This document shows, piece after piece, positions 6,385 through 47,292 of a DNA stretch of 64,000 nt. A program made the translations under genes and the position numbers. The notes below the pieces were generated by a model. The model ran no database searches and was not told the DNA's origin. It worked only from the letters and a program-made list of their open reading frames with translations. The stretch is from an uncultured Actinomycetes bacterium (GTDB lineage Bacteria; Actinomycetota; Thermoleophilia; UBA2241), in assembly GCA_963767005.1 (NCBI GenBank), contig CAVYCN010000006.1, positions 32,001 through 96,000 on the forward strand, written 5' to 3'. How positions within the stretch are numbered: position 1 is the stretch's first letter; every line of letters begins with the position of its first letter.

Positions 6385-7779
6385 CTAGCCGGCGAACGAC
6401 TCGTCGATCGAGCGGGCGGCGCGGCGGCCCGCGCCCATCGCGCTGATCACGGTGGCCGCCCCGGTCACGACGTCGCCGCCGGCCCATACCCCGGGCCGCG
6501 ACGTGGCGCCGGTCTCTTCGCTTGCCACGATGTTGCCCTTGCGCCCCACCTCGAGGCCCGGCGTGGTCATGGGGATCAGCGGGTTGGGGCTGTTGCCGAT
6601 CGCGCAGACCGACGCGTCCATCTCCATGATGAACTCCGAGCCGGGCACCTCGACCGGCCGGCGCCGGCCCGACTCGTCGGGCTCGCCGAGCTCCATGCGA
6701 CGGCACTCGATGCTCGCCAGGCGCCCGGCCTCGTCGCCGATGAGCTGCACGGGCAGCGTGAGAAAGTCGAAGATCACGCCCTCTTCCTCGGCGTTCTCGG
6801 CCTCTTCGGCGCGCGCCGGCAGCTCGGCGCGCGAGCGCCGGTAGACGATGTGCACCTCGTCGGCGCCCAGGCGCAGCGCGGTGCGCGCCGAGTCCATCGC
6901 CACGTTGCCCCCGCCGAACACGGCGACCCGCGCCGGCCGCTTGAGCGGTGTGTCGTAGGCCGGAAAGCGAAAGCCGCGCATGAGGTTGCAGCGCGTGAGG
7001 TACTCGTTGGCCGAAAAGACGCCGTTCAGGTTCTCGCCGGGGATGTCGAGGAACCACGGCAGCCCGGCGCCGGCGCCCACGAAGACGGCGTCGAAGGTCT
7101 CGAGCAGGCGTTCGATCGTGCGCGTCTTGCCGACCACGAAGTCGAGCCGCAGCTCGACCCCGAGGCCGCGCACGTAGTCGACCTCGCGGCGCACGATCGC
7201 CTTGGGCAGGCGGAACTCGGGGATGCCGTAGGTGAGCACGCCGCCGGCCTCGTGCAGCGCCTCGTACATCGTCACCGCGTGACCGCGCAAGGCGAGGTCG
7301 GCGGCCACCGTGATGCCGGCCGGCCCCGAGCCCACGATCGCGACGTGGCGGCCGGTCGGCGGCGGGAGCGGCGCAGCCGCTCCCGCCGCCTCGCCGGCCG
7401 CCGCCTCCCAGTCGGCCACGAAGCGCTCGAGGCGGCCGATCGCCACCGGGTCGCCCTTCTTGCCGAGGATGCAGCGCGCTTCGCACTGCTCCTCCTGCGG
7501 GCAGACGCGCCCGCAGACCGCCGGCAGCGCGTTGGTCTGCTTGACGGCGCGCACGGCGGCGGCGAAGTCGCCCTCGGCCACGAGGCCCACGAAGCGCGGG
7601 ATGTCGACGCTCACCGGACAGCCGTCGACGCAGCCCGGCTTCTTGCACGACAGGCAGCGCGCCGCCTCTTCGCGGGCAAGCTGCTCGGTGTAGCCCAGGG
7701 CGACCTCGTCGAAGTTGCGCACGCGCTCGGCCGGCGCCTGCTTGGGCATGGGCCGCCGCACCAGGTCGACCTTGGCCAC
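6385..7779 (-). CDS. nfnB: NADH-dependent reduced ferredoxin:NADP+ oxidoreductase large subunit (NfnB/SudA, GltD-like)
   Basis: EAARCLSCKKPGCVDGCPV, CGRVCPQEEQCE, GSGPAG, GGGNVAMDSAR. Directly downstream of nfnA. Confidence 0.88.
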   Translation of the reverse strand: MAKVDLVRRPMPKQAPAERVRNFDEVALGYTEQLAREEAARCLSCKKPGCVDGCPVSVDIPRFVGLVAEGDFAAAVRAVKQTNALPAVCGRVCPQEEQCEARCILGKKGDPVAIGRLERFVADWEAAAGEAAGAAAPLPPPTGRHVAIVGSGPAGITVAADLALRGHAVTMYEALHEAGGVLTYGIPEFRLPKAIVRREVDYVRGLGVELRLDFVVGKTRTIERLLETFDAVFVGAGAGLPWFLDIPGENLNGVFSANEYLTRCNLMRGFRFPAYDTPLKRPARVAVFGGGNVAMDSARTALRLGADEVHIVYRRSRAELPARAEEAENAEEEGVIFDFLTLPVQLIGDEAGRLASIECRRMELGEPDESGRRRPVEVPGSEFIMEMDASVCAIGNSPNPLIPMTTPGLEVGRKGNIVASEETGATSRPGVWAGGDVVTGAATVISAMGAGRRAARSIDESFAG

Positions 7780-7819
7780 TACGCCCTCCCCCGCCCGCTG
7801 CCGGCCGCCGCGCCCATCG

Positions 7820-8653
7820 TCAGAACCTCGCCGAGCAGCCGCTGCGGTGCAGCGGTTCGACCTCTTCCTGGTGGTAGCCCTCGCGCCGGGCGAGGAACTC
7901 GTCCCAGTCGACCTCGTGGCCGTCGAACTCGGGCCCGTCGACGCAGGCGAACTTCGTCTCGCCGCCGACGCTCAGGCGACACACGCCGCACATGCCGGTG
8001 CCGTCGATCATGATCGGGTTCATGCTGACGATCGTCTTGATGCCGAGCGGCCTGGTCGCGTTGGCGACCGTCATCATCTGAAAGGTGCAGCCGTGGGCGA
8101 TCACCCGGTCGGGGACGATCTTCTCGTGGGTGAGGATCTCGGCGAGACGGGTGACGTGGCCGCGATAGCCTTTGCTGCCGTCGCGGGTCACGACGATGAG
8201 GCGCTCGACGACCGCCGCCATGCGGTCCTCCCAGTACAGCACGTACGAGCTGCGCGCCTCGATCAGGGCGAAGACCCGGTTGCCGGCCTCGCGCATGGCG
8301 CGGGCGATGGGCAGCAGGCTGCCCAGGCCGTAACAGCCGCCGACCAGCAGCACCGTGCCGAACTTGTCGATCTCGGTCTCGTTGCCGAGCGGCCCGGCGT
8401 ACGAGGCGACCGTGTCGCCGGCCTTCAGCCGGGCGAGCTTGGCGGTCGAGGCGCCGACCTGCACGAACACCGAGGTGACGGTGCCGGCCTGCGCGTCCCA
8501 GTCGGCGATCGTGAGCGGGATGCGCTCGCCGCGCTCGTCGGGCCGCAGGATCACGAAGTTGCCCGCCCGCGCGCTCTCGGCGACGTCGGGCGCCTCGACG
8601 GTCAGCAGGTGCACGTTGGGCACCAGCATGCGGCGTTCAACGACCGGGACCAT
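7820..8653 (-). CDS. nfnA: Nfn small subunit (NfnA/SudB, PyrK-like FAD/[2Fe-2S])
   Basis: ATG 8653 after GGAGGTGG. ERIPLTIAD, GPLGN, MIDGTGMCGVCR...FACVDGPEFDG. Confidence 0.88.
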   Translation of the reverse strand: MVPVVERRMLVPNVHLLTVEAPDVAESARAGNFVILRPDERGERIPLTIADWDAQAGTVTSVFVQVGASTAKLARLKAGDTVASYAGPLGNETEIDKFGTVLLVGGCYGLGSLLPIARAMREAGNRVFALIEARSSYVLYWEDRMAAVVERLIVVTRDGSKGYRGHVTRLAEILTHEKIVPDRVIAHGCTFQMMTVANATRPLGIKTIVSMNPIMIDGTGMCGVCRLSVGGETKFACVDGPEFDGHEVDWDEFLARREGYHQEEVEPLHRSGCSARF

Positions 8654-11177
8654 CTCCACCTCCTCTGGACCGGCGCCCCTTGCGGACGCGGTCACCGGCC
8701 AGCACGGCGCCGCGCGCCGGCCGCCACGAGCCCTGCCAGCTTTCGTCGCGCACGAGGTAGGCCGCGCCGCGCGGGCAGTCGGGGTCGGACCGGGCGGCGA
8801 GGACCAGGTCGGTGCCGTCCAGGCGGACCGTCAGCTCGCCGCCCGGCTCGACCCCGAGCCGGGCGAGATCGTCGGGATGCAGCCCGACGCCCGCTTCGAG
8901 GTGCAGCTCGGCCAAGCCCTCGACCACGCCGGCGAGATCGATGCCGCGGTGGCGGAACGACGCGTGCTCGAGCACGATCGTGAAGCGGCCGCTGTGGACC
9001 GGCACGATGGGTGCGGCCGGGCCGGCCGGCCCGGCCGCACCCATCGCACTCACCGCGACCGGGCTCAGGCGCCGCGGAGCCCGGTCGAGCTCGGCCGGGA
9101 ATCCAGGCACCTCGGCGCGGATCGCGTCGCGCACGGCGCGGGCCGACTCGAAGCCGAGCCCTTTGCGGCCGAGGCGCGCCGCCAGGTCGCTCACGATGCG
9201 CCAGTCGGGCCGCGGCCCGAGCAGGGCGTCGCGCGGCGGCCGGTCGACCGGGCGCAGGTCCTGCACGCGCCCCTCGACGCTCGTCAGCGTGCCCTCGGCC
9301 TCGACCGCGGCGCACGCCGGCAGAAAGACGTCGACGGCGAAGGGCGGCGGGTACATGCTCTGGACGATCACGGTCTCGCAGGGCGGCCGCTCGGTGAGCG
9401 GCGTCTCGCCGATCAGGTAGAGGACGTGCGGCGGCCGGCCGGTCCACAGGCGCTCGAGCCCGTCCTCGGCGGGGCCCGGCCGCGGGCCGGGCAGCACGCC
9501 GGCGAGGACGCCGAGCTCGAGCGCGCCGCGCACGTTGGCCCCCTGGGCGAGCGGCAGCACCGAGGCGCCGGGCAGCGCGGCCACCGCCTCGAGCTCGGCC
9601 ACGAGCTCGCCGGCGCCCTCGCAGTCGAAGACGCGCGGCCCGACGACCACCGACACGGCGCCGGCGGCCTCGCCGTCACCGGCGGCCTCGCCGGCGCTCG
9701 TGGGCGTTGATGCAGCGGCAGCCTCTCCACGGGCAGCGGCACCGTCGCCCGCACGCAGCTCGCGCAGCAGGGCGGCCAGGTCGTGCGCCTCGTCGCCCGG
9801 ACGCGAGCGCAGCCAGCGGTCGGCCACCCGCGCCAGGTTCGACTCGCGCGCATCGACGACCAGCAGGCGCGCGCCGCGCCGCACGGCGCGGCGCACCTGC
9901 ACCCCGGCGACCGAGAACGAGAAGCGCGTGTCGAGGCCGGCGACGACAACGGTGTCGGCCGCGGCCAGACGGGCGAGCGACACCGGCAGCGCGAAGAGGC
10001 GCGACCAGAGGGCGGCGCCGCCGGGCAGCGCCGAGCGGGCCGTGGAGTCGACGGCGGCCGCGAGCGCCTTGCGGGCGAAGCGCTGCGCCGCGTAGAGCGA
10101 CTCGTTGGGCAGGTCGGGCGAGGCGAGCACGAGCACCTCGCCGGGTGGCGCGGTCGCGAGGGCCGCGCCGACGGCGTCGAGCGCCTCGTCCCAGTCGGTC
10201 ACGCGCTCGTAAGGCCCCTTGCGCACGACCGGCCGGCGCCCGCGGTCGTAATGATGGGTGACCTCGGGCAGGCAGAAGCGGCCGCGCAGGCAGAGCTGGC
10301 CGTCGTTGACCTCGAGGTCGGGCGCGGCCCGCACGGCGGAGAGGGCGCCGTCCTTGTGAGCGAGCTCGACCCGGCAGCCCAGGCAGCAGAACGGGCAGGT
10401 GCTCGTCTCGGCGCCGTCGGCCTTGCCGTCCCACTTGGAGACCTTGTCGAAGAGCGCGCCGGTGGGGCACACCGACACGCAGGCGCCGCAGAACTCGCAG
10501 CCGGCGGCCACGTGCGAGACGCCGAACGCCGGACCCACCAGGGTGCGCGGCCCACGGTACTTGAAGGCGAGCACCGACGCGCCGCGCACCTCATGGCACA
10601 TGCGCACGCAGCGCCCGCAAAGGATGCAGAGGTTGTAGTCGCGGTCGTAGAAGGGGTCGTCGTGCTCGGGCTCGAGACCCTTGTAGACGATCGGATAGCC
10701 GACGTCGGTGACCCCGAGCCGCTCGACGAGCGCCTGCAGCTCGCAGTCGCCGTCGTTGGGGCAGCTCCGGCAGCCAGTCGACACGCCCGACTTGCGGATG
10801 GTCGTCAGGCTGCGGCGGCAGTCGTCGCTCTCGCCGCACAGCAGGCAGCTACAGGGGTGCTCCGACAGGAGCAGGCGCAGGATCTCCTCGCGCATCTCGC
10901 GTAGCGCGACCGTGTCGGTCGTGACCGCCATGCCTTCGGTCGCGAGCGTGCTGCAGGCGAGCGGGTAGCCGCGCGCGCCCTCGATCTCGACCGAGCACAG
11001 CCGGCAGCCGCCGAAGGCGCTGAGCTCCTCGTGCCAGCAGAGCGAGGGCACGAACACGCCGGCGAGCTCGGCGGCGCGCAGCACCGTGCTGCCCTCGGGC
11101 ACCGTGACCGGACGGTGGTCGATCTCGAGGTGCACGGCCGGCGCGTCGGGGCGCGGCAGGCGTTCGACCGTGCTCAT
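8637..11177 (-). CDS. NuoG/FdhF-like multi-Fe-S molybdopterin-oxidoreductase-fold subunit lacking the Mo/W ligand motif
   Basis: True start ATG 11177, ATGA-coupled to nuoF. [2Fe-2S] CWHEELSAFGGCRLC, HPCSCLLC, CILCGRCVRMC, CEFCGACVSVCP, CPFCCLGC...C. The FDH ARL(C/U)H motif is replaced by TARSAL. Confidence 0.85.
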   Translation of the reverse strand: MSTVERLPRPDAPAVHLEIDHRPVTVPEGSTVLRAAELAGVFVPSLCWHEELSAFGGCRLCSVEIEGARGYPLACSTLATEGMAVTTDTVALREMREEILRLLLSEHPCSCLLCGESDDCRRSLTTIRKSGVSTGCRSCPNDGDCELQALVERLGVTDVGYPIVYKGLEPEHDDPFYDRDYNLCILCGRCVRMCHEVRGASVLAFKYRGPRTLVGPAFGVSHVAAGCEFCGACVSVCPTGALFDKVSKWDGKADGAETSTCPFCCLGCRVELAHKDGALSAVRAAPDLEVNDGQLCLRGRFCLPEVTHHYDRGRRPVVRKGPYERVTDWDEALDAVGAALATAPPGEVLVLASPDLPNESLYAAQRFARKALAAAVDSTARSALPGGAALWSRLFALPVSLARLAAADTVVVAGLDTRFSFSVAGVQVRRAVRRGARLLVVDARESNLARVADRWLRSRPGDEAHDLAALLRELRAGDGAAARGEAAAASTPTSAGEAAGDGEAAGAVSVVVGPRVFDCEGAGELVAELEAVAALPGASVLPLAQGANVRGALELGVLAGVLPGPRPGPAEDGLERLWTGRPPHVLYLIGETPLTERPPCETVIVQSMYPPPFAVDVFLPACAAVEAEGTLTSVEGRVQDLRPVDRPPRDALLGPRPDWRIVSDLAARLGRKGLGFESARAVRDAIRAEVPGFPAELDRAPRRLSPVAVSAMGAAGPAGPAAPIVPVHSGRFTIVLEHASFRHRGIDLAGVVEGLAELHLEAGVGLHPDDLARLGVEPGGELTVRLDGTDLVLAARSDPDCPRGAAYLVRDESWQGSWRPARGAVLAGDRVRKGRRSRGGGDGPGR

Positions 11178-13156
11178 GAGGTCGCCCCCGCCGACTCGAT
11201 CACGATGGCGTCGCCGGCGATCGCGTCGAAGCGGCAGATCTCGTAGCACGAGCGGCACTTGATGCACTTGTCGAGGTCGAGGTTGTGGGGCTCGGAGCGC
11301 GGTCCCGTGATGGCGCCCGTCGGACACACCTGCACGCAGCGCTGGCAGCCCGTGCAGCGGCCGGGGATGATCGAGTAGACGACCAGGTCGCGGCACACGG
11401 CGGCACGGCAGCGATGCGCCGTGATGTGCTCGACGAACTCGTCGCGGAAGTACTTGAGCGACGAGAGCACGGGGTTCGGCGCCGTCTGCCCGAGGCCACA
11501 GAGCGAGGCCGCCTTGACCACGCGGGCGAGGCGCTCGAGCCGGTCGAGGTCGGCGAGCTCGCCGCGCCCGGCGCAGATGCCGTCGAGGATGCCGACCAGG
11601 TGGCCGGTGCCCACCCGGCAGGGCACGCACTTGCCGCACGACTCGTCCTGGGTAAAGCCCAGGAAGTAGCGCGCCGTGTCGACGATGCAGGTGTCGCGGT
11701 CGAGCACGATCAGGCCGCCCGAGCCGATGATCGAGCCGGCCGCCGCGAGGTTCTCGTAGTCGATCGGCGTGTCGAGGAACTCCTCGCCCAGGCAGCCGCC
11801 CGACGGCCCGCCGGTCTGCACCGCCTTGAAGTCCTTCGCGAGACCGCCGCCGATGTCGTAGATCACCGCGCGCAGGGTGGTGCCGAAGGGGATCTCGACC
11901 AGTCCCGTGCGCCGCACTTTGCCGACCAGGGCGAAGGTCTTGGTGCCGCGCGAGCCCTCGGTGCCGTGGGCGGCATACCAGGCCGCGCCGCGGCCGATGA
12001 TGGCCGGCAGCGTGGCCAGCGTCTCGACGTTGTCGATGATCGTGGGCCGCCCCCACAGGCCGGACACGGCCGGGAACGGCGGCCGGCTGCGCGGCATGCC
12101 GCGCCGGCCCTCGATGCTCGCGATGAGCGCCGTCTCCTCGCCGCAGACGAAGGCGCCGGCGCCTTCCTTGAGGGTGATGTCGAACGAGAAGCCCGAACCG
12201 AGGATGTCGGCACCCAGGAGCCCCAACTTGCGGGCCGCGGCCATGGCCGAGCGCAGGCGGGCGATGGCGAGCGGGTACTCGGCGCGGATGTAGATGTAAC
12301 CGTGATCGGCGCCGATCGCGTAGGCGGCGATCAGCATGCCCTCGAGGACGGCGTGCGGGTCGCCTTCGATCAGCGAGCGGTTCATGAAGGCGCCGGGGTC
12401 GCCTTCGTCGGCGTTGCAGACGAGGCGGCGCGGCCCCTCGTTCTCGCGGCAGGTCAGCCACTTGCGCCAGGTCGGAAAACCGGCGCCGCCGCGGCCCCGC
12501 AGGCCGGCGTCCTTGATGGTGTCGACGACCTCGCGCCAGCTCAGCTCGAGGCAGCGCTCGAAGGCGCGGTAGCCGCCGCGCGCCAGGTAGTGGTCGACCT
12601 GCTCGGGGTCGATCACGCCGCAGTTGCGCAGCACGATACGCACCTGGTCGCGCAGCATCGGGTGGTCGGCCAGGCGCGCCACGGCGGCGACGGCGTCGGC
12701 CGGCGTCGCGCCGTCGTTTGCGGGCGCGCCATCGCCGGCGGGGGCGCCGTCGTCGCCGCCGGCCGGCGCAAAGCCGCCGTCGAGACCCAGATCGGCGCCG
12801 GGTGCGTCGAAGCGCCCGACGAGGTGCGTGCGCGGCACCTCGCCGGCCAGCAGGCCGTCGAGCACGCGCGGCACGAGCTCTGGCGCCATGTTCGAGTAGC
12901 ACACGCGCGGCCGGCCGGGGAGCTGCACGTCGAACAGCGGCTCGAGATAGCAGGGCCCGATGCAGCCGACCCCCACGACCGCGGCGTCGACGCCGCGCTC
13001 GGCCAGGTACTGGAGCACCGCGTCGTGCACGGCGCCGGCGCCGGCAGCCTTGCCGCACGAACCCATGCCGATGTAGACGACGGGGCGCGGGCTGGCCGCC
13101 AGTGCGGCCCAACGCGCCTCGGCCCGCTTGCGGCGGCGCTCAAGCGTGGCCGTCAC
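11174..13156 (-). CDS. NuoF/HydB-like FMN/NADH-binding subunit, long bifurcating type
   Basis: GLRGRGGAGFPT, CNADEGDPGAFMNR, GAFVCGEETAL, GGPSGG, SCGKCVPCRVG and a C-terminal 2x[4Fe-4S] domain. Confidence 0.92.
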   Translation of the reverse strand: MTATLERRRKRAEARWAALAASPRPVVYIGMGSCGKAAGAGAVHDAVLQYLAERGVDAAVVGVGCIGPCYLEPLFDVQLPGRPRVCYSNMAPELVPRVLDGLLAGEVPRTHLVGRFDAPGADLGLDGGFAPAGGDDGAPAGDGAPANDGATPADAVAAVARLADHPMLRDQVRIVLRNCGVIDPEQVDHYLARGGYRAFERCLELSWREVVDTIKDAGLRGRGGAGFPTWRKWLTCRENEGPRRLVCNADEGDPGAFMNRSLIEGDPHAVLEGMLIAAYAIGADHGYIYIRAEYPLAIARLRSAMAAARKLGLLGADILGSGFSFDITLKEGAGAFVCGEETALIASIEGRRGMPRSRPPFPAVSGLWGRPTIIDNVETLATLPAIIGRGAAWYAAHGTEGSRGTKTFALVGKVRRTGLVEIPFGTTLRAVIYDIGGGLAKDFKAVQTGGPSGGCLGEEFLDTPIDYENLAAAGSIIGSGGLIVLDRDTCIVDTARYFLGFTQDESCGKCVPCRVGTGHLVGILDGICAGRGELADLDRLERLARVVKAASLCGLGQTAPNPVLSSLKYFRDEFVEHITAHRCRAAVCRDLVVYSIIPGRCTGCQRCVQVCPTGAITGPRSEPHNLDLDKCIKCRSCYEICRFDAIAGDAIVIESAGATS

Positions 13157-13610
13157 CGAGCAGCTCCTGCAGCTTGAGGACGCTCATCTGACCGTAGATC
13201 GAGTCGTCGATCGTCACCACCGGCGCGAGAGCGCAGCAGCCCAGGCAGGCGACCCGCTCGAGACCGTACTCGCCGTCGGGCGTGGTCTCGCCGGGCCGCA
13301 CGTCGAGGCGGCGCTCGAGCGTCTCGAGCATCTGCACGCCGCCCTTCACGTGGCAGGCGGTGCCCAGGCAGACGCGCAGGCGATGACGGCCCGGCGGCGT
13401 GAAGCGGAACTGGGCGTAGAAGGTGGCGACGCCGAAGACTTCGTTCTCGGACAGCTTGAGCCAGCGCGCGACACCCGCGATCGACTCGGGCGACAGGTAA
13501 CCGAGGACCTCTTGCGTGCGCTGCAGCACCGGCACGAGGTCGGAGGGCGCACCGGAGAAGCCGCGCCTGATAGCGGGCCAGGGGTCGGAGGTCGGGGCGG
13601 GCGTCGCCAC
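13140..13610 (-). CDS. NuoE/HydC-like [2Fe-2S] subunit
   Basis: VATFYAQF, VCLGTACHVKG, ACLGCCALAP. Confidence 0.92.
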   Translation of the reverse strand: MATPAPTSDPWPAIRRGFSGAPSDLVPVLQRTQEVLGYLSPESIAGVARWLKLSENEVFGVATFYAQFRFTPPGRHRLRVCLGTACHVKGGVQMLETLERRLDVRPGETTPDGEYGLERVACLGCCALAPVVTIDDSIYGQMSVLKLQELLGDGHA

Positions 13611-13662
13611 CGGCAGCCCCCCTGCCTTCAGCCGCGCCTGAAGAACGATCCGCAGGCCATAT

Positions 13663-13869
13663 CCCGGAAGCTCCCCTCGTCAGTGTCGACCGACGACCGG
13701 ATGGAGAAACGAGCACAGCGGTGATGCGGCCATGGTAGCACACGGCGGCAAGCTTCCGCCCGCGCCACCGGCGGCACAGCATGCGGCGGAACTGCGGCTT
13801 GACGTCTTCCGCCCCCGCGCGGCAGCGTGCTACGATGCAGGCACGTGGTCCGGCCACGAAGCTTCCGGG
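13663..13869. promoter_or_regulatory. Divergent promoter region: mirror-image extended -10 boxes and a repeated AGCTTCCG(GG) element
   Basis: TGCTACGAT on + (13828-13836) and TGCTACCAT on - (13732-13740). AGCTTCCG copies at 13663-13672 (-), 13750-13758 (+) and 13859-13869 (+). Confidence 0.45.
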
Positions 13870-14041
13870 TCGCCTCGGGGGGCGGAGGAACTGACGGCAT
13901 GACGTCACACCGGTTCCGTGTGGACAGCGTCGCACCTCGGCCACCGCGCGGCCCGCGAGCCGCAGCAGAGCTCCCGTCCGGACCTTCCCCCGTCCTTCCC
14001 CCTAGCCGCGCCGCCGCGGATCCGAGCGGACTGGAGGCCCG

Positions 14042-14563
14042 ATGAGCACGTGCGCGCATAGCTGGTCCATGACCGACGTCCAGAACGGCTACCTCGTCGT
14101 CGAAGGCTGCTATCACTGCGGCGCGCGCAGCTCGTTCTTCTCGCTCGAGCCCGCGGTGCCGATCGACGAGTACCGCGAGGGTCCGCACTTCTGGGAGCAC
14201 CTCGCCGGCTACCAGGCCGTCAGGTTCAACCTGCGCTGCGACCAGTGCGGCGAGAAGGTCGACCTGCACGACATGATGGGCCTGATGCTCTCCACCTGCG
14301 ACGATCAGGACTGCCCGGTCGGCCGGCTCAGCACCGAGCTCGGCAAGAAGACGTCGGTCTACGTCGCGCTGTGCGCCGACTCGTCGCACACGGCGGGCCA
14401 CTGTGTGAGCGACGCCGGCGTGAAGGCCCTCGAGCAGTACTTCAACCAGCGCCTGCGCACCGGGCGCCGGAAGATCGCGGTCGTGCCCTGCAGCATGTGC
14501 GACCGCATCGACCGCTGCCAGGGCATCGTCCTGGCCGACACCGGTCTGACCGAGTTCTATTGA
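14042..14563 (+). CDS. Cys-rich hypothetical protein (12 Cys), probably metal-binding
   Basis: GGAGG RBS, host-like codon usage, CYHC, CDQC and CSMC motifs. Confidence 0.75.
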   Translation: MSTCAHSWSMTDVQNGYLVVEGCYHCGARSSFFSLEPAVPIDEYREGPHFWEHLAGYQAVRFNLRCDQCGEKVDLHDMMGLMLSTCDDQDCPVGRLSTELGKKTSVYVALCADSSHTAGHCVSDAGVKALEQYFNQRLRTGRRKIAVVPCSMCDRIDRCQGIVLADTGLTEFY

Positions 14564-14597
14564 TGCCGCGGCCGCGGTCGCGCACAAAGGGGGTTGC

Positions 14598-14927
14598 ATG
14601 AAGATCTCCGAGGTCGTCGAGAAGACTGGGCTCGAGGCGCTCAACGAGTGGGAAGACGTCGACGTGGCCGGCGTCTACATCTCGGACATGGTGTCCGACA
14701 TCATCACCGGCGCGAGCGGCTGCGGCCTGCTGCTCACGCTGCAGACCCACAAGAGCCTGATCGCCGCCGCCAACCTGGTCGACGTCGAGGCCGTGGTGTT
14801 CGCCCACGGCAAGCGCCCGGCCGACGACGTACTCGAGCTCGCCGGCAAGGCCGGCATCGCCCTGTTCACGACGCCCGACCACACCTGGAAGTACGCCGTC
14901 AAGCTCTTCGAGCTCGGCATGCGCTAA
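14598..14927 (+). CDS. DRTGG domain protein
   Basis: GVYISDMVSDII, LLLTLQTHKSLIAAANL; DRTGG-like small protein. Confidence 0.8.
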   Translation: MKISEVVEKTGLEALNEWEDVDVAGVYISDMVSDIITGASGCGLLLTLQTHKSLIAAANLVDVEAVVFAHGKRPADDVLELAGKAGIALFTTPDHTWKYAVKLFELGMR

Positions 14928-15269
14928 ATGGAGCTGGCCGACATCGCCGCCGCCCTCGACTGCGCGCCGCTGACCCCACAGGACGGTGTCGGCGACATCG
15001 ACACCGTCGTGGCGTCCGACGGCATGAGCGAGATCCTCGCCTTCCACACGCCGGGCGCGGTCATGCTCACAGGGCTGACCAACATCCAGTCGGTGCGCAC
15101 CGCGGTCGTCGCCGACGTGCACGCCATCATCTACGTGCGCGGCAAGCGCCCGGCCGAGACGGCCCTCACCCTCGCTCGCGAGAAGGGCATCCCGGTGCTG
15201 TCGACCAGGCTCGGCATGTTCGAGAGCTGCGGCATCCTCTACGAGCGCGGCCTCAAGGGGGCGATGTAG
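14928..15269 (+). CDS. DRTGG domain protein
   Basis: ASDGMSEIL, LTGLTNIQSVRTA, YVRGKRP, MFESCGILYERGL. Confidence 0.85.
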   Translation: MELADIAAALDCAPLTPQDGVGDIDTVVASDGMSEILAFHTPGAVMLTGLTNIQSVRTAVVADVHAIIYVRGKRPAETALTLAREKGIPVLSTRLGMFESCGILYERGLKGAM

Positions 15270-15706
15270 TGCCCGAGGAGCTCCTCTCGCGCTCGTTCGC
15301 GGTGCACGGCCGCGACTTCGAGAAGGCCGGCGAGGCGTCGACCGAGATCAAGTCGCTGCTCAAGGAGCTCGAGGTCGACCCGAACGTCATCCGCCGCACG
15401 GTGGTGATCGCCTTCGAGGCCGAGATGAACATCGTGATGTACGCCGACGAGGGCACCGTGAGCTTCACGCTCACCGACGAGGACATCGGCATCGAAGCCG
15501 CCGACCGCGGCCCCGGCATCCCCGACCTCGACCTTGCCCTGCAGGAGGGCTGGTCGACCGCCACCGACGAGATGCGCGAGATGGGCTTCGGCTTCGGCAT
15601 GGGCCTGCCCAACATCCGGCGCAACGCCGACGCGTTCAAGGTCGACACGCGCGTGGGCCAGGGCACCACGGTGTCCACCCGCGTCAGCCTGGACGGCACC
15701 GCGTGA
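15269..15706 (+). CDS. Anti-sigma-factor-type Ser/Thr kinase (RsbW/RsbT-like HATPase)
   Basis: GTG overlaps the upstream TAG. EAEMNIVMYA, ADRGPGIPD, GWSTAT..REMGFGFGMGLPNI. Confidence 0.88.
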   Translation: MPEELLSRSFAVHGRDFEKAGEASTEIKSLLKELEVDPNVIRRTVVIAFEAEMNIVMYADEGTVSFTLTDEDIGIEAADRGPGIPDLDLALQEGWSTATDEMREMGFGFGMGLPNIRRNADAFKVDTRVGQGTTVSTRVSLDGTA

Positions 15707-17016
15707 GCGAGGCCGGCATGATCGACTACGCCCACGGCTTTCGCGTGCACGACGACCTCTGCGACGGCTGCCTGGCCTGCATGCGCCTCTGCCCCACCCA
15801 GGCGATCAGGGTGCGCGACGGCAAGGCCAGGGTGCGGGCCGAGCTCTGCATCGACTGCGGCTCCTGCCTGAAGGCCTGCACCCGCGGGGCCATCACGGCC
15901 ACCACGAGCACGCTCGACGAGTTCGCCGACTACGCCTTCAAGGTGGCGATCCCCTCGCCGGTGCTCTACGGCCAGTTCCCGCGCGAGGTGCGACCGGCGC
16001 ACATCGTCCAGGGCCTGCTCAGGGCCGGCTTCGACGCCGTCTGGGACTACGGCATCGAGCTCGGCCTGACGACGCGCGCGATCGCCGACTACGTCGACGA
16101 CTGGGAGGGCCCGCGCCCGCTCGTGAACATGAACTGCCCGGTGATCATCAGGCTCATCCAGGTCTCGTACCCGCGCATGGTCGACCAGCTCCTGCAGATG
16201 CAGCCGCCCCGCGAGCTCGCCGGCCGCGAGATCAAGGCGCGGTACTCGCGCGAGCTCGGCCTGCCGCCCGAGCGCATCGCGGCGATCTACGTGACGCCCT
16301 GCCAGGCGCGCACCATCTCGATCATCCAGCCGGCCGAGGGCGGCCGGAGCTCGCTCGACGGCACGGTCGGAATCCCGCAGGTCTACAACGCCATCCTCGA
16401 AGAGGCGCGGCGCCTGTCGGAGGCCGGCGAGCAGCCCGCCGAGACCTCACTCGTGCGCTCGTCGGGCATGCTGCGCTGGGCCACGCCGCGCGCCTTTCCC
16501 TACGCGCTGCGGCGCCACCGCTACCTGCCGGTCACCGGCCTGTCCAACGTGATCCGCGTGTTCGACGACGTCGAGCGCGGCAAGCTCAAGGACATCGACT
16601 TCCTCGAGTGCTACGCGTGCTGGGCGGGCTGCGGCAACGGCAACCTCACGGTCGACAACGTCTACGTCGGACAGGCCAAGCTGCAGACGATGATGGCCGA
16701 GCTGCCGACGACCGATCCTGTGACCCAGGCCGACATCGAGCGGCGCTACCCGCTCGAGGACTTCACGCTCGAGTTCCCCTTCGCGCCGCGCCAGCGCCCC
16801 GACTCGGGCTCGCTGCGCGACCGCGTGAGCCGGGTGAAGCAGGCCGAGGAGATCCTCGCCCTGCTGCCGGGCTACGACTGTGGCCTGTGCGGCTGCCCGT
16901 CGTGCCTGACCCTCGCCCGCGACGCGGCGGCCGGCGAGGCCGCCGCGACCGACTGCGCCGTGCTGTCGACGCAGCGCATGCGCGAGCTCCGCCGCCTCCG
17001 CCGGCGCGCCTCCTGA
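15703..17016 (+). CDS. [FeFe]-hydrogenase large-subunit-like Fe-S protein (sensory group C/D-like, degenerate H-cluster motifs)
   Basis: N-terminal 2x[4Fe-4S]. P1-like NMNCP, P2-like TPCQAR, P3-like ECYACWAGCGNG. C-terminal FeS motif LPGYDCGLCGCPSC. Confidence 0.8.
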   Translation: MSEAGMIDYAHGFRVHDDLCDGCLACMRLCPTQAIRVRDGKARVRAELCIDCGSCLKACTRGAITATTSTLDEFADYAFKVAIPSPVLYGQFPREVRPAHIVQGLLRAGFDAVWDYGIELGLTTRAIADYVDDWEGPRPLVNMNCPVIIRLIQVSYPRMVDQLLQMQPPRELAGREIKARYSRELGLPPERIAAIYVTPCQARTISIIQPAEGGRSSLDGTVGIPQVYNAILEEARRLSEAGEQPAETSLVRSSGMLRWATPRAFPYALRRHRYLPVTGLSNVIRVFDDVERGKLKDIDFLECYACWAGCGNGNLTVDNVYVGQAKLQTMMAELPTTDPVTQADIERRYPLEDFTLEFPFAPRQRPDSGSLRDRVSRVKQAEEILALLPGYDCGLCGCPSCLTLARDAAAGEAAATDCAVLSTQRMRELRRLRRRAS

Positions 17017-20865: not shown

Positions 20866-22341
20866 TCAGGGTCGCACGGCGGCCAGCTCGCCTTCGGCCT
20901 CGACGATGATCCGCCCGAGCTCGGCCGCGACCGGCGCCGGCAGCGGTGTCGGCACGTGCGTCTCGAGCAGCCGGACCGCCTCGCGCCGCGCGCGTTCGTA
21001 GACCGTCGTCGCACCGTCGGCGGCCCACTCCTCGCGGACCCGGCGATCGATCAACTGCGAGCGCGACTGGCCGCGCATGCCGCGGTAGGTGTCGTCGTGC
21101 GACAGAAAGTCGCGGAACGGCCCGACCTCGGCGATCACATCGACCGAGAGCGTCTCGTCTGAGACCGGGATCCCGGGCACGCAGAACTTGACCATGCGCG
21201 CGAACTCGGCGTCCATGACGAGCTGTGCGTAGTCGATCGTGACGCCCGATTCCAACATCCCCAGCCCGTAGATCAGGTTGGCCCCTGCCAACGCCGGCAG
21301 CAGGCTGGTGAGGGTCTTCTCGTGACCGGATTGGGCGTCGGCCACCTTGGCGTCGCCCTACGCACCGGCGACCCAGCTCGGCAGCAGGTAGAAGCGCGCC
21401 AGGCAGGCCACCCCGGCGCCGATCATGCCGCACTCGGGGCTGCCCACCGAGGCGCTCGCGAAGCGCAGGTCCATGGCCGTCGTCGAGGAGCCGTAGATGA
21501 CGGGTGCGCCGCGCGTCGTGAGCTGCGCGAGCGTGATGCCGGCCAGCACCTCGGCGTTGTGGGTGACGAGCGTGCCGGCCAGGCTGACCGGCGACGAGCC
21601 GCCGGCCATGGCCATCGACAGCACGTTGACCGGCACGCCGGCGCGCGCCCCCTCGATGATGATGTGACAGGCGTCGGCGACCAGCTTGAGCGGGCTCACC
21701 GGGCAGGTCAGGAACGAAAGCAGCGGGCGCCGGCGTAGCGCTTCGCGGCCGCCGGCGATGGCCGCCGCCATGTCGATCATCGCGCGGGCGCAGAAGCCCG
21801 TGAGCGGACCGATCGTCGCGTGCTTCGTGGTGTTCGCGAAGATCGCCTCGGCGTTGTGCAGCGGCGCGGTGTCGGGCGGCACGTCGTGGGCGCCCAGGGG
21901 CCGCTCGACGACGTCGATCTCGGGCAGCGCGTCGATGATCCTCGTGCAGTCGGCGACGTCGCACTTACGCGACTCGTGCAGCTCGCCGGTCCGCGGGTCG
22001 ACGACCTGGATGCCCTCGCCGAAGTTGGTGAAGCCGACGCGGCCGTCCTCGAGCACGACGTCGCGGGCCGGGTCGCGTCCGCAGAGCACGACCGAGGAAG
22101 GCGCCGAGCGGACCGCGTCTTCGACCAGGTGCGCCGGCAGGCGCACCACGCTCGAGTCGCGGTCGACCTCGGCGCCGGCCGCCGCGAAGATGTCGCGGGC
22201 TTCGCCGTCTTCGACGAACACGCCGGTGCGCGCCAGCACCTCGAGTGTCGCCGAGTGGATCTCGTGCAGCTCGTCGTCGGTGAAGACCTCGAGCCGAAAG
22301 CCGCCGCTCGCTCGCGCGCCGGCCCGCGGGTTGCGCCTCAT
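20866..22341 (-). CDS. mttB: Pyrrolysine-containing trimethylamine:corrinoid methyltransferase (491 aa, in-frame TAG at codon 328)
   Basis: ORFs 21358..22341 and 20866..21345 share a frame, separated only by TAG 21358-21360. Read-through gives [49 protein letters not shown], matching the Pyl context of methanogen MttB. Confidence 0.95.
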
Positions 22342-22396: not shown

Positions 22397-23803
22397 CTAG
22401 CGCACGCGGCTCGTCGGGGCCGTGCGCTCGCGGAACCGCTCGACGCAGTTGATCGGCAGGTCGAGCACCCGGGCGATGTTCACCTTGGCCTCGATCATGT
22501 TCGCCTGCGCCGGCTGGCTGATCGCGTAGCTGTGGATGCGGCCGAAGCCGTGCTCGTTGCGCACGTCGGTCATGACGACCGGGTCGGACAGGTCGAACGA
22601 CGTCACGCCGAGCCTGTCGGCCACGTACTGCTTGGCCTGCGCGAGACGCATGCCGCGGGTCATCTGCGCGCGAGCGACCAGATCTCCGGCCGCCCGCATG
22701 CCGCCCATGCCCGCCGCCTGCGCATGCGCGTTGTGCATGCCGTGCGGATCGCCCGAGCCCACCTACAAGCCGTCGAGGCGCAGCAGGTCGACGAACGACT
22801 TGGCGGCCCTGCAGACGGCGTCGCCCGGCGGATGCACGAACATCGGCACTGCGCCGACGCCCATGCCGGCGTTCATGTGCACGGGGATCGTGGCGACCGC
22901 CATGCAGGGCTTGACGATGGCGATCGCGCGCGCCACGTTCCAGGCGCAGCTCTTACCGGTGTTCACGTTGACGACCGGGCCGAACATGGTGGCGCCGGCC
23001 TGCTGGGCCAGCAGGAGCTGGTCTTTGGGCCACAGGCCGGCCAGGCGCACGCCCTCGTAGGTGAGCTCGCCGTGCATGCCGAGCACGAACTCGCCCGCCA
23101 TGCCGAGCTGCACGCCGAGGTCGGGGTACTTCTGACGGATGATCGCGGTGGCGCGCAGCGCGGCCAGGAACTCGGGGTCGCCCGAGGCGCCGGTCGTGTC
23201 CCAGTCGATCGCGTCGGCGCCGGCCTCGTACTGCGAATCGGCGAGGTGCACCATGTCGAGGACAGCCATCTCGACCGCCTCTTCTTCGGCCGCCCGCGCC
23301 TCGGCGATCTTGCCCAGCGGCAGCAGCTCGTTCCAGTTGTCGCAGGGGCCGTCCGGTTTGGAGTACAGCCCGAGGTTGGGCATCACGCCGTACTGCAGGG
23401 GCGCCACCGTGGCGAGCAGCGCGTCGTGCATGCACTGCGCCTCGTAGGCGAGGATCGTGCGCACGACCTTGAGCGAGTAGTCGCCGACGCACAGCTCGAG
23501 CAGGTCGGCGCCCATCCACTGCTCGTAGGCCTGCAGATCCTGCAGGCGCGTGGCGTGGGTCTTCATGCCGGTGCCGTCGCAGGAGAGCACGACCTCGTCG
23601 CCCACGTCGACGCCGGTGAAGCGCGCCGGCGAGGCGTAGATGTCGAGCAGGTGGTCGATCTCGTCGGCCGCCAGCGGCGCCACCTTGGCGCGTTTGGCCG
23701 CCGCCTCGGACCCCGCCTCGAGGTCGGCCCTGATCTCGTCGCGGGTCATCCGCACGAACATGCCGTCGGCCATACGCGTCGGCACCCTGGGCTCGCCGCT
23801 CAC
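22397..23803 (-). CDS. mtbB: Pyrrolysine-containing dimethylamine:corrinoid methyltransferase (468 aa, in-frame TAG at codon 347)
   Basis: GTG 23803 after GGAGGGAGG; N-terminal TRMADG. ORFs 22763.. and 22397..22762 abut across TAG 22763-22765, giving LRLDGL-O-VGSGDPHGM...GMRAAGDLVAR, the MtbB Pyl context. Confidence 0.95.
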
Positions 23804-23894: not shown

Positions 23895-23950
23895 TAACCG
23901 ACCGGTCAATCAGTGCGCGCCTATCATCGCGCCGGCCGGGTCCGTGTCAA
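23895..23950 (-). promoter_or_regulatory. Promoter and TetR-type operator of mtbB-mttB
   Basis: TTGACA on - strand (23950-23945). Operator TAACCGACCGGTCAATCAG (23895-23913) is identical to 40664-40682. Confidence 0.75.
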
Positions 23951-24480
23951 GGGACATCCGCGCCGCGCGCCGGCTCGAGGCGCACGATGGCCTCGCCCTC
24001 CCACTCGAAGTTCACCTTGTCGACCCGCAGGATGTGCCAGGTCTCGGTGTCGGCGATGCCCTCGATCTTCTCGAGCTCCTCGTTCAGAAACCGGTAGAGG
24101 CCCTCGTTGTCGGGCAGGTGGGCCTCGATCAGGATGTCGAAGGAGCCTGTCGTGTAGCCCACGTATGAGACCGCCTCCATGGCCGCCAGGGCGGCCCCCA
24201 CGCCCTTGGCAAAGCCGCGGTGCACACGGATGCCGACCATGGCATCGACGGGGTAGCCGATCGCGGCCGGGTTCACGCGGGCCATGGGCAGGATCGCCCC
24301 CTGGCTGATGAGGCGCTCCACCCGGTTGCGCGCGGTCGGCTCGGACACGCCCACGGCGCGCGCGATGCTCGCATACGAACGCCGCGAGTTGGCGCGCAGC
24401 AGGCGCACGATGTGGCGGTCGAGCTCGTCGAGCTCGACGACCCCGAACGGCGCCTCGCCCGCCCTGATCACGCCGCCCAC
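23947..24480 (-). CDS. Lrp/AsnC family transcriptional regulator
   Basis: LDELDRHIVRLLRANSRRSYASIARAVGVSEPTARNRVERL; TTGSFDIL in the RAM domain. Exact start uncertain. Confidence 0.92.
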   Translation of the reverse strand: MGGVIRAGEAPFGVVELDELDRHIVRLLRANSRRSYASIARAVGVSEPTARNRVERLISQGAILPMARVNPAAIGYPVDAMVGIRVHRGFAKGVGAALAAMEAVSYVGYTTGSFDILIEAHLPDNEGLYRFLNEELEKIEGIADTETWHILRVDKVNFEWEGEAIVRLEPARGADVP

Positions 24481-24810: not shown

Positions 24811-26304
24811 GTGAAGGCGAGCACGACCTGGCTCAGCGACGCGGAGAAGAACGCCATCGCCGACCACGCCCTCGAGGTGCTCGCCACCACCGGCATGCGC
24901 TTCGCCGGCTCGCGGGTCCTGCCCCTGCTCGCCGAGCAGGGCGCCGCGGTCGACCGTGCGCGCGGCCTTGCTCGCTTGCCGCGCGAGCTCGTCGAGCGGT
25001 CGCTCGCCGCCTGCCCGCGCTCGTTCGTCATGGGCGGCGCCACGCCGGCCGACGACGTCGCGCTCGGCACCGGCGAGGCCTTTCACTTCACGCCCAGCGG
25101 CTGCGTGGCCAAGACGCTCGACCGGCAGAGCGGCCGGCGCCGCCCGAGCACGCTCCAGGACCTGCGCGACTGCACCGGCCTCATGGACGAGCTGCCCGAG
25201 ATGGACGTCATGTCGACCCAGGTCAGCGCGACCGACGTCGGCCTTGAGCGCCGCGAGCTGCTCGAGTACTTCACCATGCTCACCGAGACCACCGAGCACG
25301 TCTCGTTCATCGACTGCCCGCACGAGGTCGACGCCGTGCTGCGCCTGTGCGACGTGCTCGGCGAGGCCGCCGGCTTTGCCGAGCGGCCGCGCTTCTCCAC
25401 GGTGTGCACCATCGCCTCGCCGCTGCAGGTCGACGGCGGGGCGCTCGACGTGCACCTCGCCCTGGCGCCGCGCGGCGTGCCGGTCGAGGTCTACTCCATG
25501 ACGATCGCCGGCGCGACCTCGCCGGTCACGCTGGCCGGCACCGTCGTCCAGGCGGTGGCCGAGTTCCTCGGCGTGGCCACCGCCTTTCAGGTGGCGGCCC
25601 CCGGCGCGCGCCTCGTGTTCTGCTTCGGCTCCGGCGTGCTCGACATGGTGCGCACGACCTTCTCGCTCGGCTGCGTCGAGAGCGGCCTCATGGCAGCCAT
25701 GGCCACCGAGGTCGGCCACCACCTCGGCGTGCCCACCCTCAACCCCGCGCTGTCGACCGACGGCAAGCACCCCGGCGTGCAGGCCGGCTACGAGAAGGCG
25801 CTCAAGGCGGCCACCGTCTGCGCCGCCAACCCCGACCTCGTGTCGGGCTGGGGCCTGATCGACTCGCACAACACGATGTACCTGCCGCAGTCGGTCATCG
25901 ACAACGAGATCGCCGCCATGGTGCGGCGCCTGTGCGCGCCGGTCGACGTGAGCGAGGCCAGCCTCGCCGGCGACTCGATCGCCCGCGTCGGGCCCGGCGG
26001 CGGCTTTCTGCGCGAGAAGGACACGGCGCGGCGCATCCGCGCCGGCGAGCACTTCCTGCCGACGGTCTCGAACCGGCTCTCCTACGACCAGTGGCTCGCC
26101 GAAGGTCGTACCGAGGTCGACGCCGCCGCCGCGCGAGTCGACGAGCTGCTCGCGCGGCACCACGCGCGCGGCCCGCTGCTGCCCGCCGACCAGCTCGACG
26201 AGATCGCCGCCATCTGCCGGGCGGACCCCGGCAGCGTCCTCTGGGCGCGGCGCGAGGAGCGCCGCGACCGCCCGCGTCCCACGCCAGGAACGGAGGCACC
26301 GTGA
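24811..26304 (+). CDS. Non-pyrrolysine trimethylamine methyltransferase family (MttB superfamily, MtgB-like) protein
   Basis: IAGATSPVTLAGTVVQAVAEFL. PTLNPALSTDGKHPGVQAGYEK has Ser where the paralogue has Pyl. ARVGPGGGFL. Confidence 0.9.
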   Translation: MKASTTWLSDAEKNAIADHALEVLATTGMRFAGSRVLPLLAEQGAAVDRARGLARLPRELVERSLAACPRSFVMGGATPADDVALGTGEAFHFTPSGCVAKTLDRQSGRRRPSTLQDLRDCTGLMDELPEMDVMSTQVSATDVGLERRELLEYFTMLTETTEHVSFIDCPHEVDAVLRLCDVLGEAAGFAERPRFSTVCTIASPLQVDGGALDVHLALAPRGVPVEVYSMTIAGATSPVTLAGTVVQAVAEFLGVATAFQVAAPGARLVFCFGSGVLDMVRTTFSLGCVESGLMAAMATEVGHHLGVPTLNPALSTDGKHPGVQAGYEKALKAATVCAANPDLVSGWGLIDSHNTMYLPQSVIDNEIAAMVRRLCAPVDVSEASLAGDSIARVGPGGGFLREKDTARRIRAGEHFLPTVSNRLSYDQWLAEGRTEVDAAAARVDELLARHHARGPLLPADQLDEIAAICRADPGSVLWARREERRDRPRPTPGTEAP

Positions 26305-46596: not shown

Positions 46597-47292
46597 ATGA
46601 ACATCGGCATCATCGGCTCGGGCATCGTAGCCCAGACCCTGGGTGAGCGTCTGCTCACCGTCGGCCAGCAGGTCATGATCAGCGCGCGCGACCCCGACGC
46701 GCCCAAGGACCTCGGCGAGCGCGGCGTCCTGGCGGCGGCCGGCGTGTGGGCGACCGCCCAGTACGACCAGGGCCGGCCGGCGGCGGCGGGCACGTTCGCC
46801 GAAGCGGCGGCCTTCGGCGAGCTTCTGATCAACGCCACGTCCGGCACGGGTTCGCTCGCCGCCCTGGCGGCCGCAGAGCAGGCCGACATCGACGGCAAGA
46901 TCATCCTCGACCTGTCCAACCCGCTCGATTTCTCGCACGGCATGCCGCCGCGCCTGTCGATCTGCAACGACGACTCGCTGGCCGAGCAGATCCAGGCCGC
47001 CTATCCCGGAGCGCGCGTCGTCAAGGCCCTGAACACAGTGACCGTCGCCGTGATGGTCGATCCCGGACGGCTCGGCGAGGAGACCGACCTGTTCGTGGCC
47101 GGCAACGACCACGACGCCCGGACCTGGGTGGCCGACAACGTGCTCAGGGACTGGCTGGACTGGGCGCGCGTGGTCGACCTCGGCGACCTGACCGCGGCAC
47201 GCGGCCTCGAGATGTACCTGCCGCTCTGGCTGCGCCTCTGGGGCGCGACGGGCACACCGCTGCTGAACGTGCGACTCGTAGTCGCGAGCTAG
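46597..47292 (+). CDS. NADPH-dependent F420 reductase-like / NADP oxidoreductase
   Basis: MNIGIIGSGIVA, LDLSNPLDFS, SLAEQIQ, VVKALNT, DLGDLTAARGLE. Confidence 0.85.
   Translation: MNIGIIGSGIVAQTLGERLLTVGQQVMISARDPDAPKDLGERGVLAAAGVWATAQYDQGRPAAAGTFAEAAAFGELLINATSGTGSLAALAAAEQADIDGKIILDLSNPLDFSHGMPPRLSICNDDSLAEQIQAAYPGARVVKALNTVTVAVMVDPGRLGEETDLFVAGNDHDARTWVADNVLRDWLDWARVVDLGDLTAARGLEMYLPLWLRLWGATGTPLLNVRLVVAS

Follow-up and report, generated by a model that had tools for sequence, protein, structure and literature searches.

The in-frame TAG at positions 21358..21360 (minus strand) of a 64,000-nucleotide stretch of DNA (the window) from a soil actinobacterium of the class Thermoleophilia, whose genome is labeled G000 here, is almost certainly a pyrrolysine (Pyl) codon. 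Furthermore, comparison across gene families gives good support to a conserved mark at bacterial Pyl ambers that appears to be under selection. The mark bears on the question of how cells distinguish a UAG that means Pyl from one that ends translation. The amber lies in mttB (20866..22341, minus strand), which encodes a trimethylamine:corrinoid methyltransferase of 491 aa when read through, as assigned by the TIGR02369 profile and by alignment with M. barkeri MttB.

The original prediction placed this amber at codon 328, and the codons that it quoted are present on the minus strand (21372-21343, GTC GCC GGT GCG TAG GGC GAC GCC AAG GTG), with the TAG at 21360-21358. Translation with table 11 gives a 327-aa ORF (21358-22341) and a 159-aa ORF (20866-21345) in the same frame; when TAG is read as Pyl (O), both fuse into a single 491-aa frame in which O328 is the sole recoded step. 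The joined protein matched TIGR02369 over positions 1-469 of the 469 in the model, with 722.8 bits (equivalog cut-off of 525), which confirms the predicted read-through length and the assignment of the 159-aa ORF as the C-terminal part. Separate production of this ORF by re-initiation was rejected, since both halves belong to one family match. The suggested alignment with Methanosarcina MttB was also run, and the amber falls in the X/K Pyl column (Pyl334) of M. barkeri MttB 7xcl/7xcm (E 4e-125). Assorted sense codons, which were looked for in close homologues, are absent from all those above 60% identity in a set of 56 related loci: every one has TAG at the Pyl column. In this set, TAG is found at the column in 55 loci, and the remaining locus only has a TAG-less homologue of 32% identity. 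Sense codons occupy the column in three of 58 alignments at ≥50% identity; their identities are 52-60% and they belong to separate neighbouring paralogues. Among the TIGR02369 matches listed, from 40 genomes of the order, 147 of 150 show TAG and the other three show sense codons, and TAG is also kept in seven diverged paralogues. Neither chance nor error accounts for a TAG that recurs so consistently at one column, both in the related loci and in the listed matches. The closest named database records are 83-92% identical and belong mostly to Thermoleophilia or Actinomycetota/Actinomycetes, with two labelled as proteobacterial.

A true stop, whether in a pseudogene, through a sequencing error or in a split gene whose 159-aa ORF is separate, is therefore extremely unlikely. 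It would agree with the common use of TAG as a stop in G000, with an unconserved in-frame TAG in an unrelated gene (C13:18131, see below), and with genome G045 (93% complete), which has four TAG-mttB matches while pylSc and pylD were not found. Against it stand the recurrence of the TAG in all 55 close homologues as well as seven diverged paralogues, its position in the catalytic column, the conservation of both halves and the presence of the full decoding set. In two RNA runs, the amber is covered by contigs from relatives (shares of 0.05-0.07), but they were given no weight as evidence of expression, as contigs cannot show transcription. The gene is of a known kind, as Pyl-mttB is already in print for Actinobacteriota MAGs of Stordalen Mire (PMC10805028), which belong to the same phylum and have Pyl mttB and mtbB reported as expressed; the available passages of that paper contain nothing on pyl machinery, order-wide distribution, stop-codon use or an RNA element.

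The decoding genes pylSn, pylSc, pylB, pylC, pylD and pylT are all found in contig C3 of G000. The tRNA-Pyl gene (pylT, C3:242986-243058) shows a CUA anticodon, an anticodon stem of six pairs and G73, and a tRNA-Sec is also present. pylSn and pylSc are separate genes, with profile scores above their cut-offs (122.2 > 51.15 and 298 > 178.15 bits, respectively), as are those of PylC (276.6 > 248.3) and PylD (194.7 > 150.05). PylB was scored only on a fragment truncated where the locus ends (273.7, below the cut-off of 348.2); its whole frame is open and the radical-SAM cysteines are present. The genes are scattered over C3:236048-246370, with pylSc behind a cell-wall amidase gene on one strand, and pylSn and pylBCD-pylT on the other. 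In G000, TAG is the terminal codon of pylSc, pylSn and pylC. A pylC-pylD fusion through the in-frame TAG, an arrangement seen in G000, was discarded: the pylC TAG is in frame with pylD in only two of 29 loci, therefore no conserved fusion exists. A second pair of pylB-like and pylD-like genes, with no pylC called between them, is located at C4:551818-554336 (L116); its neighbours include an amber mttB, a corrinoid gene and two genes that resemble amino-acid permeases. The G000 assembly yielded neither an EF-Tu gene nor a 16S rRNA gene.

Pyl is a core trait of the whole order of 89 species-level genomes: pylSc was found in 82 of the 89 and in all 11 genera, pylD in 47 of the 50 genomes that are ≥85% complete, and tRNA-Pyl in 27 of 30 pylD loci. 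In a sample of the class, pylSc was found in 46 of 49 genomes of the family to which G000 belongs, seven of 44 of a second family and none of the other 207. The 2022 survey of 81 PylRS-containing bacteria included two Actinobacteria (PMC9630628). In G022 and G023 (98% complete), pylSc, pylD and amber mttB are absent together, and in G070 pylSc, pylD and tRNA-Pyl are present while an MttB-family candidate was not found.

Gly110, Met249 and Tyr364 are named active-site residues of M. barkeri MttB; Tyr364 is required for its full activity, and the equivalents of Gly110 and Tyr364 are described as fully conserved across Pyl-MttB (PMC9842639). According to the alignment, their counterparts in the window are Gly108 (22018..22020, minus strand), Met243 and Tyr358 (21268..21270, minus strand). 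The substrate is thus very probably trimethylamine, and we infer both Pyl insertion and trimethylamine activity for this MttB. On the basis of knowledge of MttB (PMC9842639), Pyl328 with Tyr358 and Gly108 would activate trimethylamine and the methyl group would pass to a corrinoid protein encoded elsewhere and then, probably, to tetrahydrofolate. The genome shows 18 TIGR02370 matches to corrinoid proteins, four of them over the cut-off and none in the window, one weak match below the cut-off to a RamA-like activator, and genes for a pterin-binding methyltransferase-like protein, MetF and Fhs; no match to acetyl-CoA synthase was found in the genome. The likely route is from trimethylamine to corrinoid, tetrahydrofolate and methyl oxidation. 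We infer that classical acetogenesis is not the route, unless the acetyl-CoA synthase gene is missing from the assembly. A search for glycine reductase gave no match anywhere, including the controls, and is thus uninformative.

The full-length alignment, the amber at the Pyl334 column and the three active-site equivalents are shared with M. barkeri MttB (PDB 7XCL/7XCM/7XCN; TIGR02369). The system differs in its bacterial host, in the lack of an adjoining corrinoid gene and of an acetyl-CoA synthase match, and in having six further amber mttB paralogues. Four of these (C3:158518, C4:145389, C4:257073 and C11:77878) lack the Gly110 equivalent, which is replaced by Ser, Ser, Asp and Ser, respectively, and may take other amines. 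G000 contains 16 amber methyltransferase genes in total: seven mttB, eight mtbB and one mtmB. It also contains about 28 TAG-less genes of the MttB superfamily and three TAG-less genes of the MtmB family. In eight loci (L054, L055, L238, L239, L240, L278, L282 and L066), TAG-less MttB genes with 52-60% identity to the Pyl enzyme lie beside amber copies and, judging by sequence, would be natural Pyl-loss derivatives.

Upstream of mttB, the window contains mtbB (22397..23803, minus strand), which encodes a dimethylamine methyltransferase of 468 aa with Pyl at codon 347 (TIGR02368, 406.6 > 369.1), with the start codon inferred from an SD-like stretch. Its own true stop is a TAG (22397-22399), and its amber (22763-22765) is preceded directly by the rare Leu codon TTG (22763..22768, minus strand, for both codons). 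A promoter-like site, TTGACA-16-GATGAT, is located ahead of mtbB-mttB (23923..23950, minus strand); it is a consensus match only, with one found against 0.1 expected. Further upstream are a gene for a regulator of the Lrp/AsnC family (23947..24480, minus strand) and a divergent TAG-less gene of the MttB superfamily (24811..26304, plus strand; 312.9, below the cut-off of 525), without Pyl, which shows Ser at both the Pyl and the Tyr364 columns. Elsewhere in the window, positions 6385-17016 contain a NuoE/F/G-like trio with a molybdopterin-family subunit, an Nfn-like pair and a sensor-like gene with an [FeFe]-hydrogenase domain, and a second Nfn-like gene is found at 47289-49718.

TAG is an ordinary stop codon in this genome. 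With genes called by a self-trained script instead of a standard gene finder, TAG closes 879 of 2735 confident gene ends (~32%), or 863 ends after removal of 16 Pyl halves. In 400 kb of each of two other genomes, it closes 95 of 283 genes in the Pyl-positive G024 and 73 of 288 in the Pyl-negative G023; thus, no depletion of TAG as a stop was seen in these three genomes. This differs from the genome-wide TAG-to-Pyl code of archaea, in which TAG is nearly absent as a stop (10.1101/2024.09.30.615893). TAA closes 84 of 288 genes in G023, which is small, compared to 21 of 283 in G024, a genome of equal GC content from the same genus. Back-up stops are not enriched after TAG, as the median distance to the next TGA or TAA is 96 codons, compared to 66 after TGA. 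Because TAG is common and lacks close back-up stops, blanket suppression would be costly.

A scan by coding score for a wider Pyl proteome gave 102 TAG candidates, and 18 of those that are not methyltransferases were compared with Pfam; no conserved Pyl gene was found among these 18. The only one with a Pfam domain across the TAG encodes a solute-binding protein (C13:17255-19033; L097:3256-5034). It was rejected as a Pyl gene, as two orthologues show TCG and there is no hairpin, and its TAG (C13:18131) is a nonsense change, an error or a neutral Pyl read-through. A terminase-like remnant (our own reading, without Pfam match) was rejected because its TAG looks unconserved, and the others of the 18 because no family spans the TAG. 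Separately, a gene read by us as peroxiredoxin-like (C12:109464-110288, L113) has an in-frame TGA where its paralogue has Cys, followed by a hairpin, and is likely a selenoprotein; a repeat of about 318 bp is present in nine or more copies at C10:69091-72589. As TAG is not depleted, close back-up stops are lacking and no conserved Pyl gene beyond the methyltransferases was found among the 18 candidates, either the cell lives with the ambiguity or its Pyl ambers are marked in some way.

A candidate for such a mark lies downstream of the amber. In mttB of the window, the predicted hairpin core GTTGGC-AGGG-GCCAAC extends from +66 to +81 after the amber (21277..21292, minus strand; loop at 21286-21283), within a predicted extended imperfect stem from +50 to +97 (21261..21308, minus strand) of weaker support, whose lower helix has 77.6% of cells paired. 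In mtbB, the predicted hairpin extends from +62 to +97 (22666..22701, minus strand), with the loop AGAT at 22685-22682. The loops are AGGN in mttB (+72), AGAY in mtbB (+78) and AGGN in mtmB (+114), and the fourth loop base varies freely. In mttB, the codons GCG TTG GCA GGN GCC AAC are fixed at +22 to +27, with GCA in 54 of 54 genes, TTG in 52 of 54 and GCC in 54 of 54; in mtbB, GGA is fixed at +26 in all 88 genes. Both GCA and GGA are kept across paralogues that are about 50% alike. These are rare choices: in the genome, GCA makes up 337 of 13985 Ala codons before Gly (2.4%) and GGA 78 of 4910 Gly codons before Asp (1.6%).

A hairpin rule, a loop AG(G/A)N with at least five of six pairs, was fixed before the later loci were fetched. 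In the discovery set, it holds for 69 of 69 TAG-mttB, 88 of 88 TAG-mtbB and 10 of 11 TAG-mtmB genes, and for two of 107 TAG-less MttB homologues, none of which is among the six closest. In the loci fetched later, it holds for 86 of 87 mttB, 48 of 49 mtbB and none of 31 TAG-less genes. The two out-of-sample misses keep the loop and have four of six pairs, and out-of-sample genes with GC3 <0.6 pass in 20 of 21 and 10 of 11 cases. The metagenome scan selected on the peptide ALAGAN and not on the codons, and took the best 80 of more than 600 matches. Within G000, a hairpin 66-120 nt downstream, a range chosen after the data had been seen, is found at 16 of 16 Pyl ambers, compared to 43 of 861 true TAG, 70 of 1731 TGA and six of 120 TAA stops; when all six pairs are required, it is found at 15 of 16 Pyl ambers and six of 861 true TAG stops. 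Genes and alignment rows are related, so that all these counts are not independent events. In a quick tree of 65 rows, the TAG-less close homologues form three groups among the amber genes, which suggests about three amber losses, with a single origin also conceivable. No strict match to the rule was found in pyl genes or leaders. The archaeal check consists of one published primer, in which M. barkeri mttB1 shows GCC instead of GCA at the loop position, so that the AGGN loop is absent from that stretch (PMC9842639).

The firmness of the predicted structure differs between families. The mtbB stem shows 80 two-sided changes against 35 in shuffles, with none of 500 as high (66 distinct rows of 111), and a covariation score of 0.210 against 0.087 in shuffles (none of 500), while a slid alignment gives at most 0.086; covarying pairs are no more numerous than in shuffles (142 of 500). 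The upper helix of mttB is paired in 94.7% of cells and is almost invariant (67 rows of 103), with 18 two-sided cells against 8.3, and RNAalifold retains four pairs, none of them two-sided and without covariation. As the mttB core is nearly invariant, little covariation is available, and the case for mttB depends on rare codons that are fixed, on a fourth loop base that is free to vary and on disappearance of the hairpin where the amber is gone. The mtmB stem is the weakest; with both closing pairs required, it is found in four of 10 genes from the family of G000, five of five from family f4 and not in the single deltaproteobacterial gene at +114. Stem swaps from C-G to U-G are seen and C-A is absent, which fits a sense-strand RNA better than a DNA palindrome. 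The first 60 nt after the amber fold no better than shuffles in the window (z of -0.73 and 0.12).

The hairpin and rare codons could also be by-products of protein sequence or ancestry, with the amber read as Pyl by simple competition of Pyl-tRNA with RF1 under pyl expression, which is the stated archaeal model (PMC9499178). In agreement with this, codon positions 1 and 2 in the stems are fixed by the peptides LAGAN and AGDLV, and the folding z-scores of the two copies in the window are modest (-1.95 and -2.83). However, TAG-less homologues that share the peptide encode it differently and do not satisfy the rule, among them six of the later loci that keep ALAGAN with other codons, and this explanation would leave GCA in 54 of 54 mttB and GGA in 88 of 88 mtbB fixed beside a free fourth loop base, with covarying third positions. 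We consider this explanation improbable.

The codon 5' of the amber is also biased. The 164 distinct Pyl sites include 100 at which Leu immediately precedes the amber, and 98 of these use TTG or TTA (12 of 12 in G000). These two codons account for 3-7% elsewhere in the same genes, for 2.4% of Leu codons in the interior of G000 genes and for only one of 64 before true TAG stops. In out-of-sample mtbB, TTG or TTA precedes the amber in 45 of 49 genes. The base immediately 5' is C in six of 155 Pyl ambers, compared to 395 of 863 true TAG stops. Avoidance of CTAG was rejected as the cause of this bias, as C, including CTG TAG, is common before true stops. The two codons 5' of the mttB amber in the window are GGT GCG (21361..21366, minus strand), that is, Ala at -1 and the rare GGT at -2; GGT is found at -2 in 42 of 54 mttB genes, though it makes up about 9% of Gly codons in those genes. 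The P-site tRNA can alter termination by RF1. Rare codons are also seen in mttB homologues at +4, +9 and +11 (window 21324-21348, minus strand), with AAA in 34, CAA in 38 and GGT in 29 of 54 genes. Synonymous sites that are kept in three unrelated families and lost with the amber argue for selection on the mRNA; the hairpin together with a codon 5' of the amber that is TTR or does not end in C would very likely reflect mRNA-level selection tied to the amber, as far as comparison of sequences can tell.

Two Rfam models match the window: PYLIS_3 (RF02510, mttB) with 71.7 bits at 21261-21360, and PYLIS_2 (RF02509, mtbB) with 57.9 bits. The latter model includes the upper part of the mtbB hairpin and its four-base loop, whereas PYLIS_3 overlaps the extended mttB stem but leaves the mttB hairpin unpaired. 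The available part of PMC3639795, the likely source of these models, states that mttB has no common structure and that the families share none. In the titles and abstracts searched, neither a shared tetraloop element nor the codon bias was found. In archaea, PYLIS is dispensable for Pyl insertion (PMC9499178). As in bacterial SECIS with SelB, the hairpin is an in-frame structure internal to the gene that follows a recoded stop; SECIS sits right after the UGA and has a dedicated factor (PMC1976440), whereas here the loop is 72-114 nt away. A SelB paralogue specific for Pyl was rejected as the hairpin factor, as no second copy was found in 30 genomes, each of which has one SelB, Pyl-negative genomes included. 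The Olavius delta-1 symbiont (PMC1976440) and marine deltaproteobacteria (PMC8318568) resemble G000 in their split pylSn/pylSc, the presence of both Sec and Pyl, and several amber mttB/mtbB copies: eight in delta-1 and up to five mttB per marine genome, against 16 amber methyltransferase genes in G000. A bacterial element had been predicted and a common RNA structure sought in Pyl genes, with none reported in the available text of PMC1976440; the deltaproteobacterial loci analyzed here carry the hairpin. According to the part of PMC12626013 that is available, no mechanism of targeted Pyl insertion is known in the organisms concerned.

We lean slightly towards a role of the AG(G/A)N hairpin in marking the amber for read-through, in which it would favor Pyl-tRNA over RF1 at a paused ribosome. 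A ribosome waiting at the UAG would leave the RNA ahead free, so that the hairpin could fold, and a factor bound to its loop might bias the competition of Pyl-tRNA with RF1 in favor of insertion. PylSn, a free-standing protein whose physiological role is called unknown in the available part of PMC9630628, would be the first candidate binder, which is a guess. Loops at 72, 78 and 114 nt, at no fixed distance and not beside the codon, weaken the case for a read-through signal. The fuller proposal, held with slightly more doubt than confidence, is a bacterial insertion signal in which one AG(G/A)N hairpin, arisen separately in mttB, mtbB and mtmB, would act from afar alongside a fixed codon in the P site, with no SelB-like factor involved, so that chosen UAGs become Pyl while a third of genes end in UAG.

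It is also conceivable, and in our judgment rather unlikely, that the hairpin downstream of a genuine Pyl amber is under selection because it sets the fate of the mRNA: once a ribosome has stalled or stopped at UAG and left the RNA exposed, it would block Rho, hold RNA polymerase back until translation draws level, or be cleaved so that the message is removed. The sequence comparisons that point to selection agree with this equally well; the variable distance and the long imperfect stems suit a device that acts on the mRNA, the 30 genomes searched for SelB gave no elongation factor specific for Pyl, and ribosomes dwell at UAG in M. acetivorans (PMC13663744). However, a plain anti-Rho or pause hairpin would not require three unrelated genes to share the AG(G/A)N loop, and the biased codon 5' of the amber, which points to the ribosome, would be left unexplained.

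As Pyl is core to an order of 89 genomes, these bacteria likely compete with methanogens for methylamines. In a lineage with 72% GC, selected A/U bases stand out, and the exact bases that can be changed without altering the protein have been identified. If the read-through role is true, the hairpin would be a bacterial PYLIS overlooked by earlier searches and, if it raises read-through, it would offer a portable route to site-selective amber suppression in genetic-code expansion.
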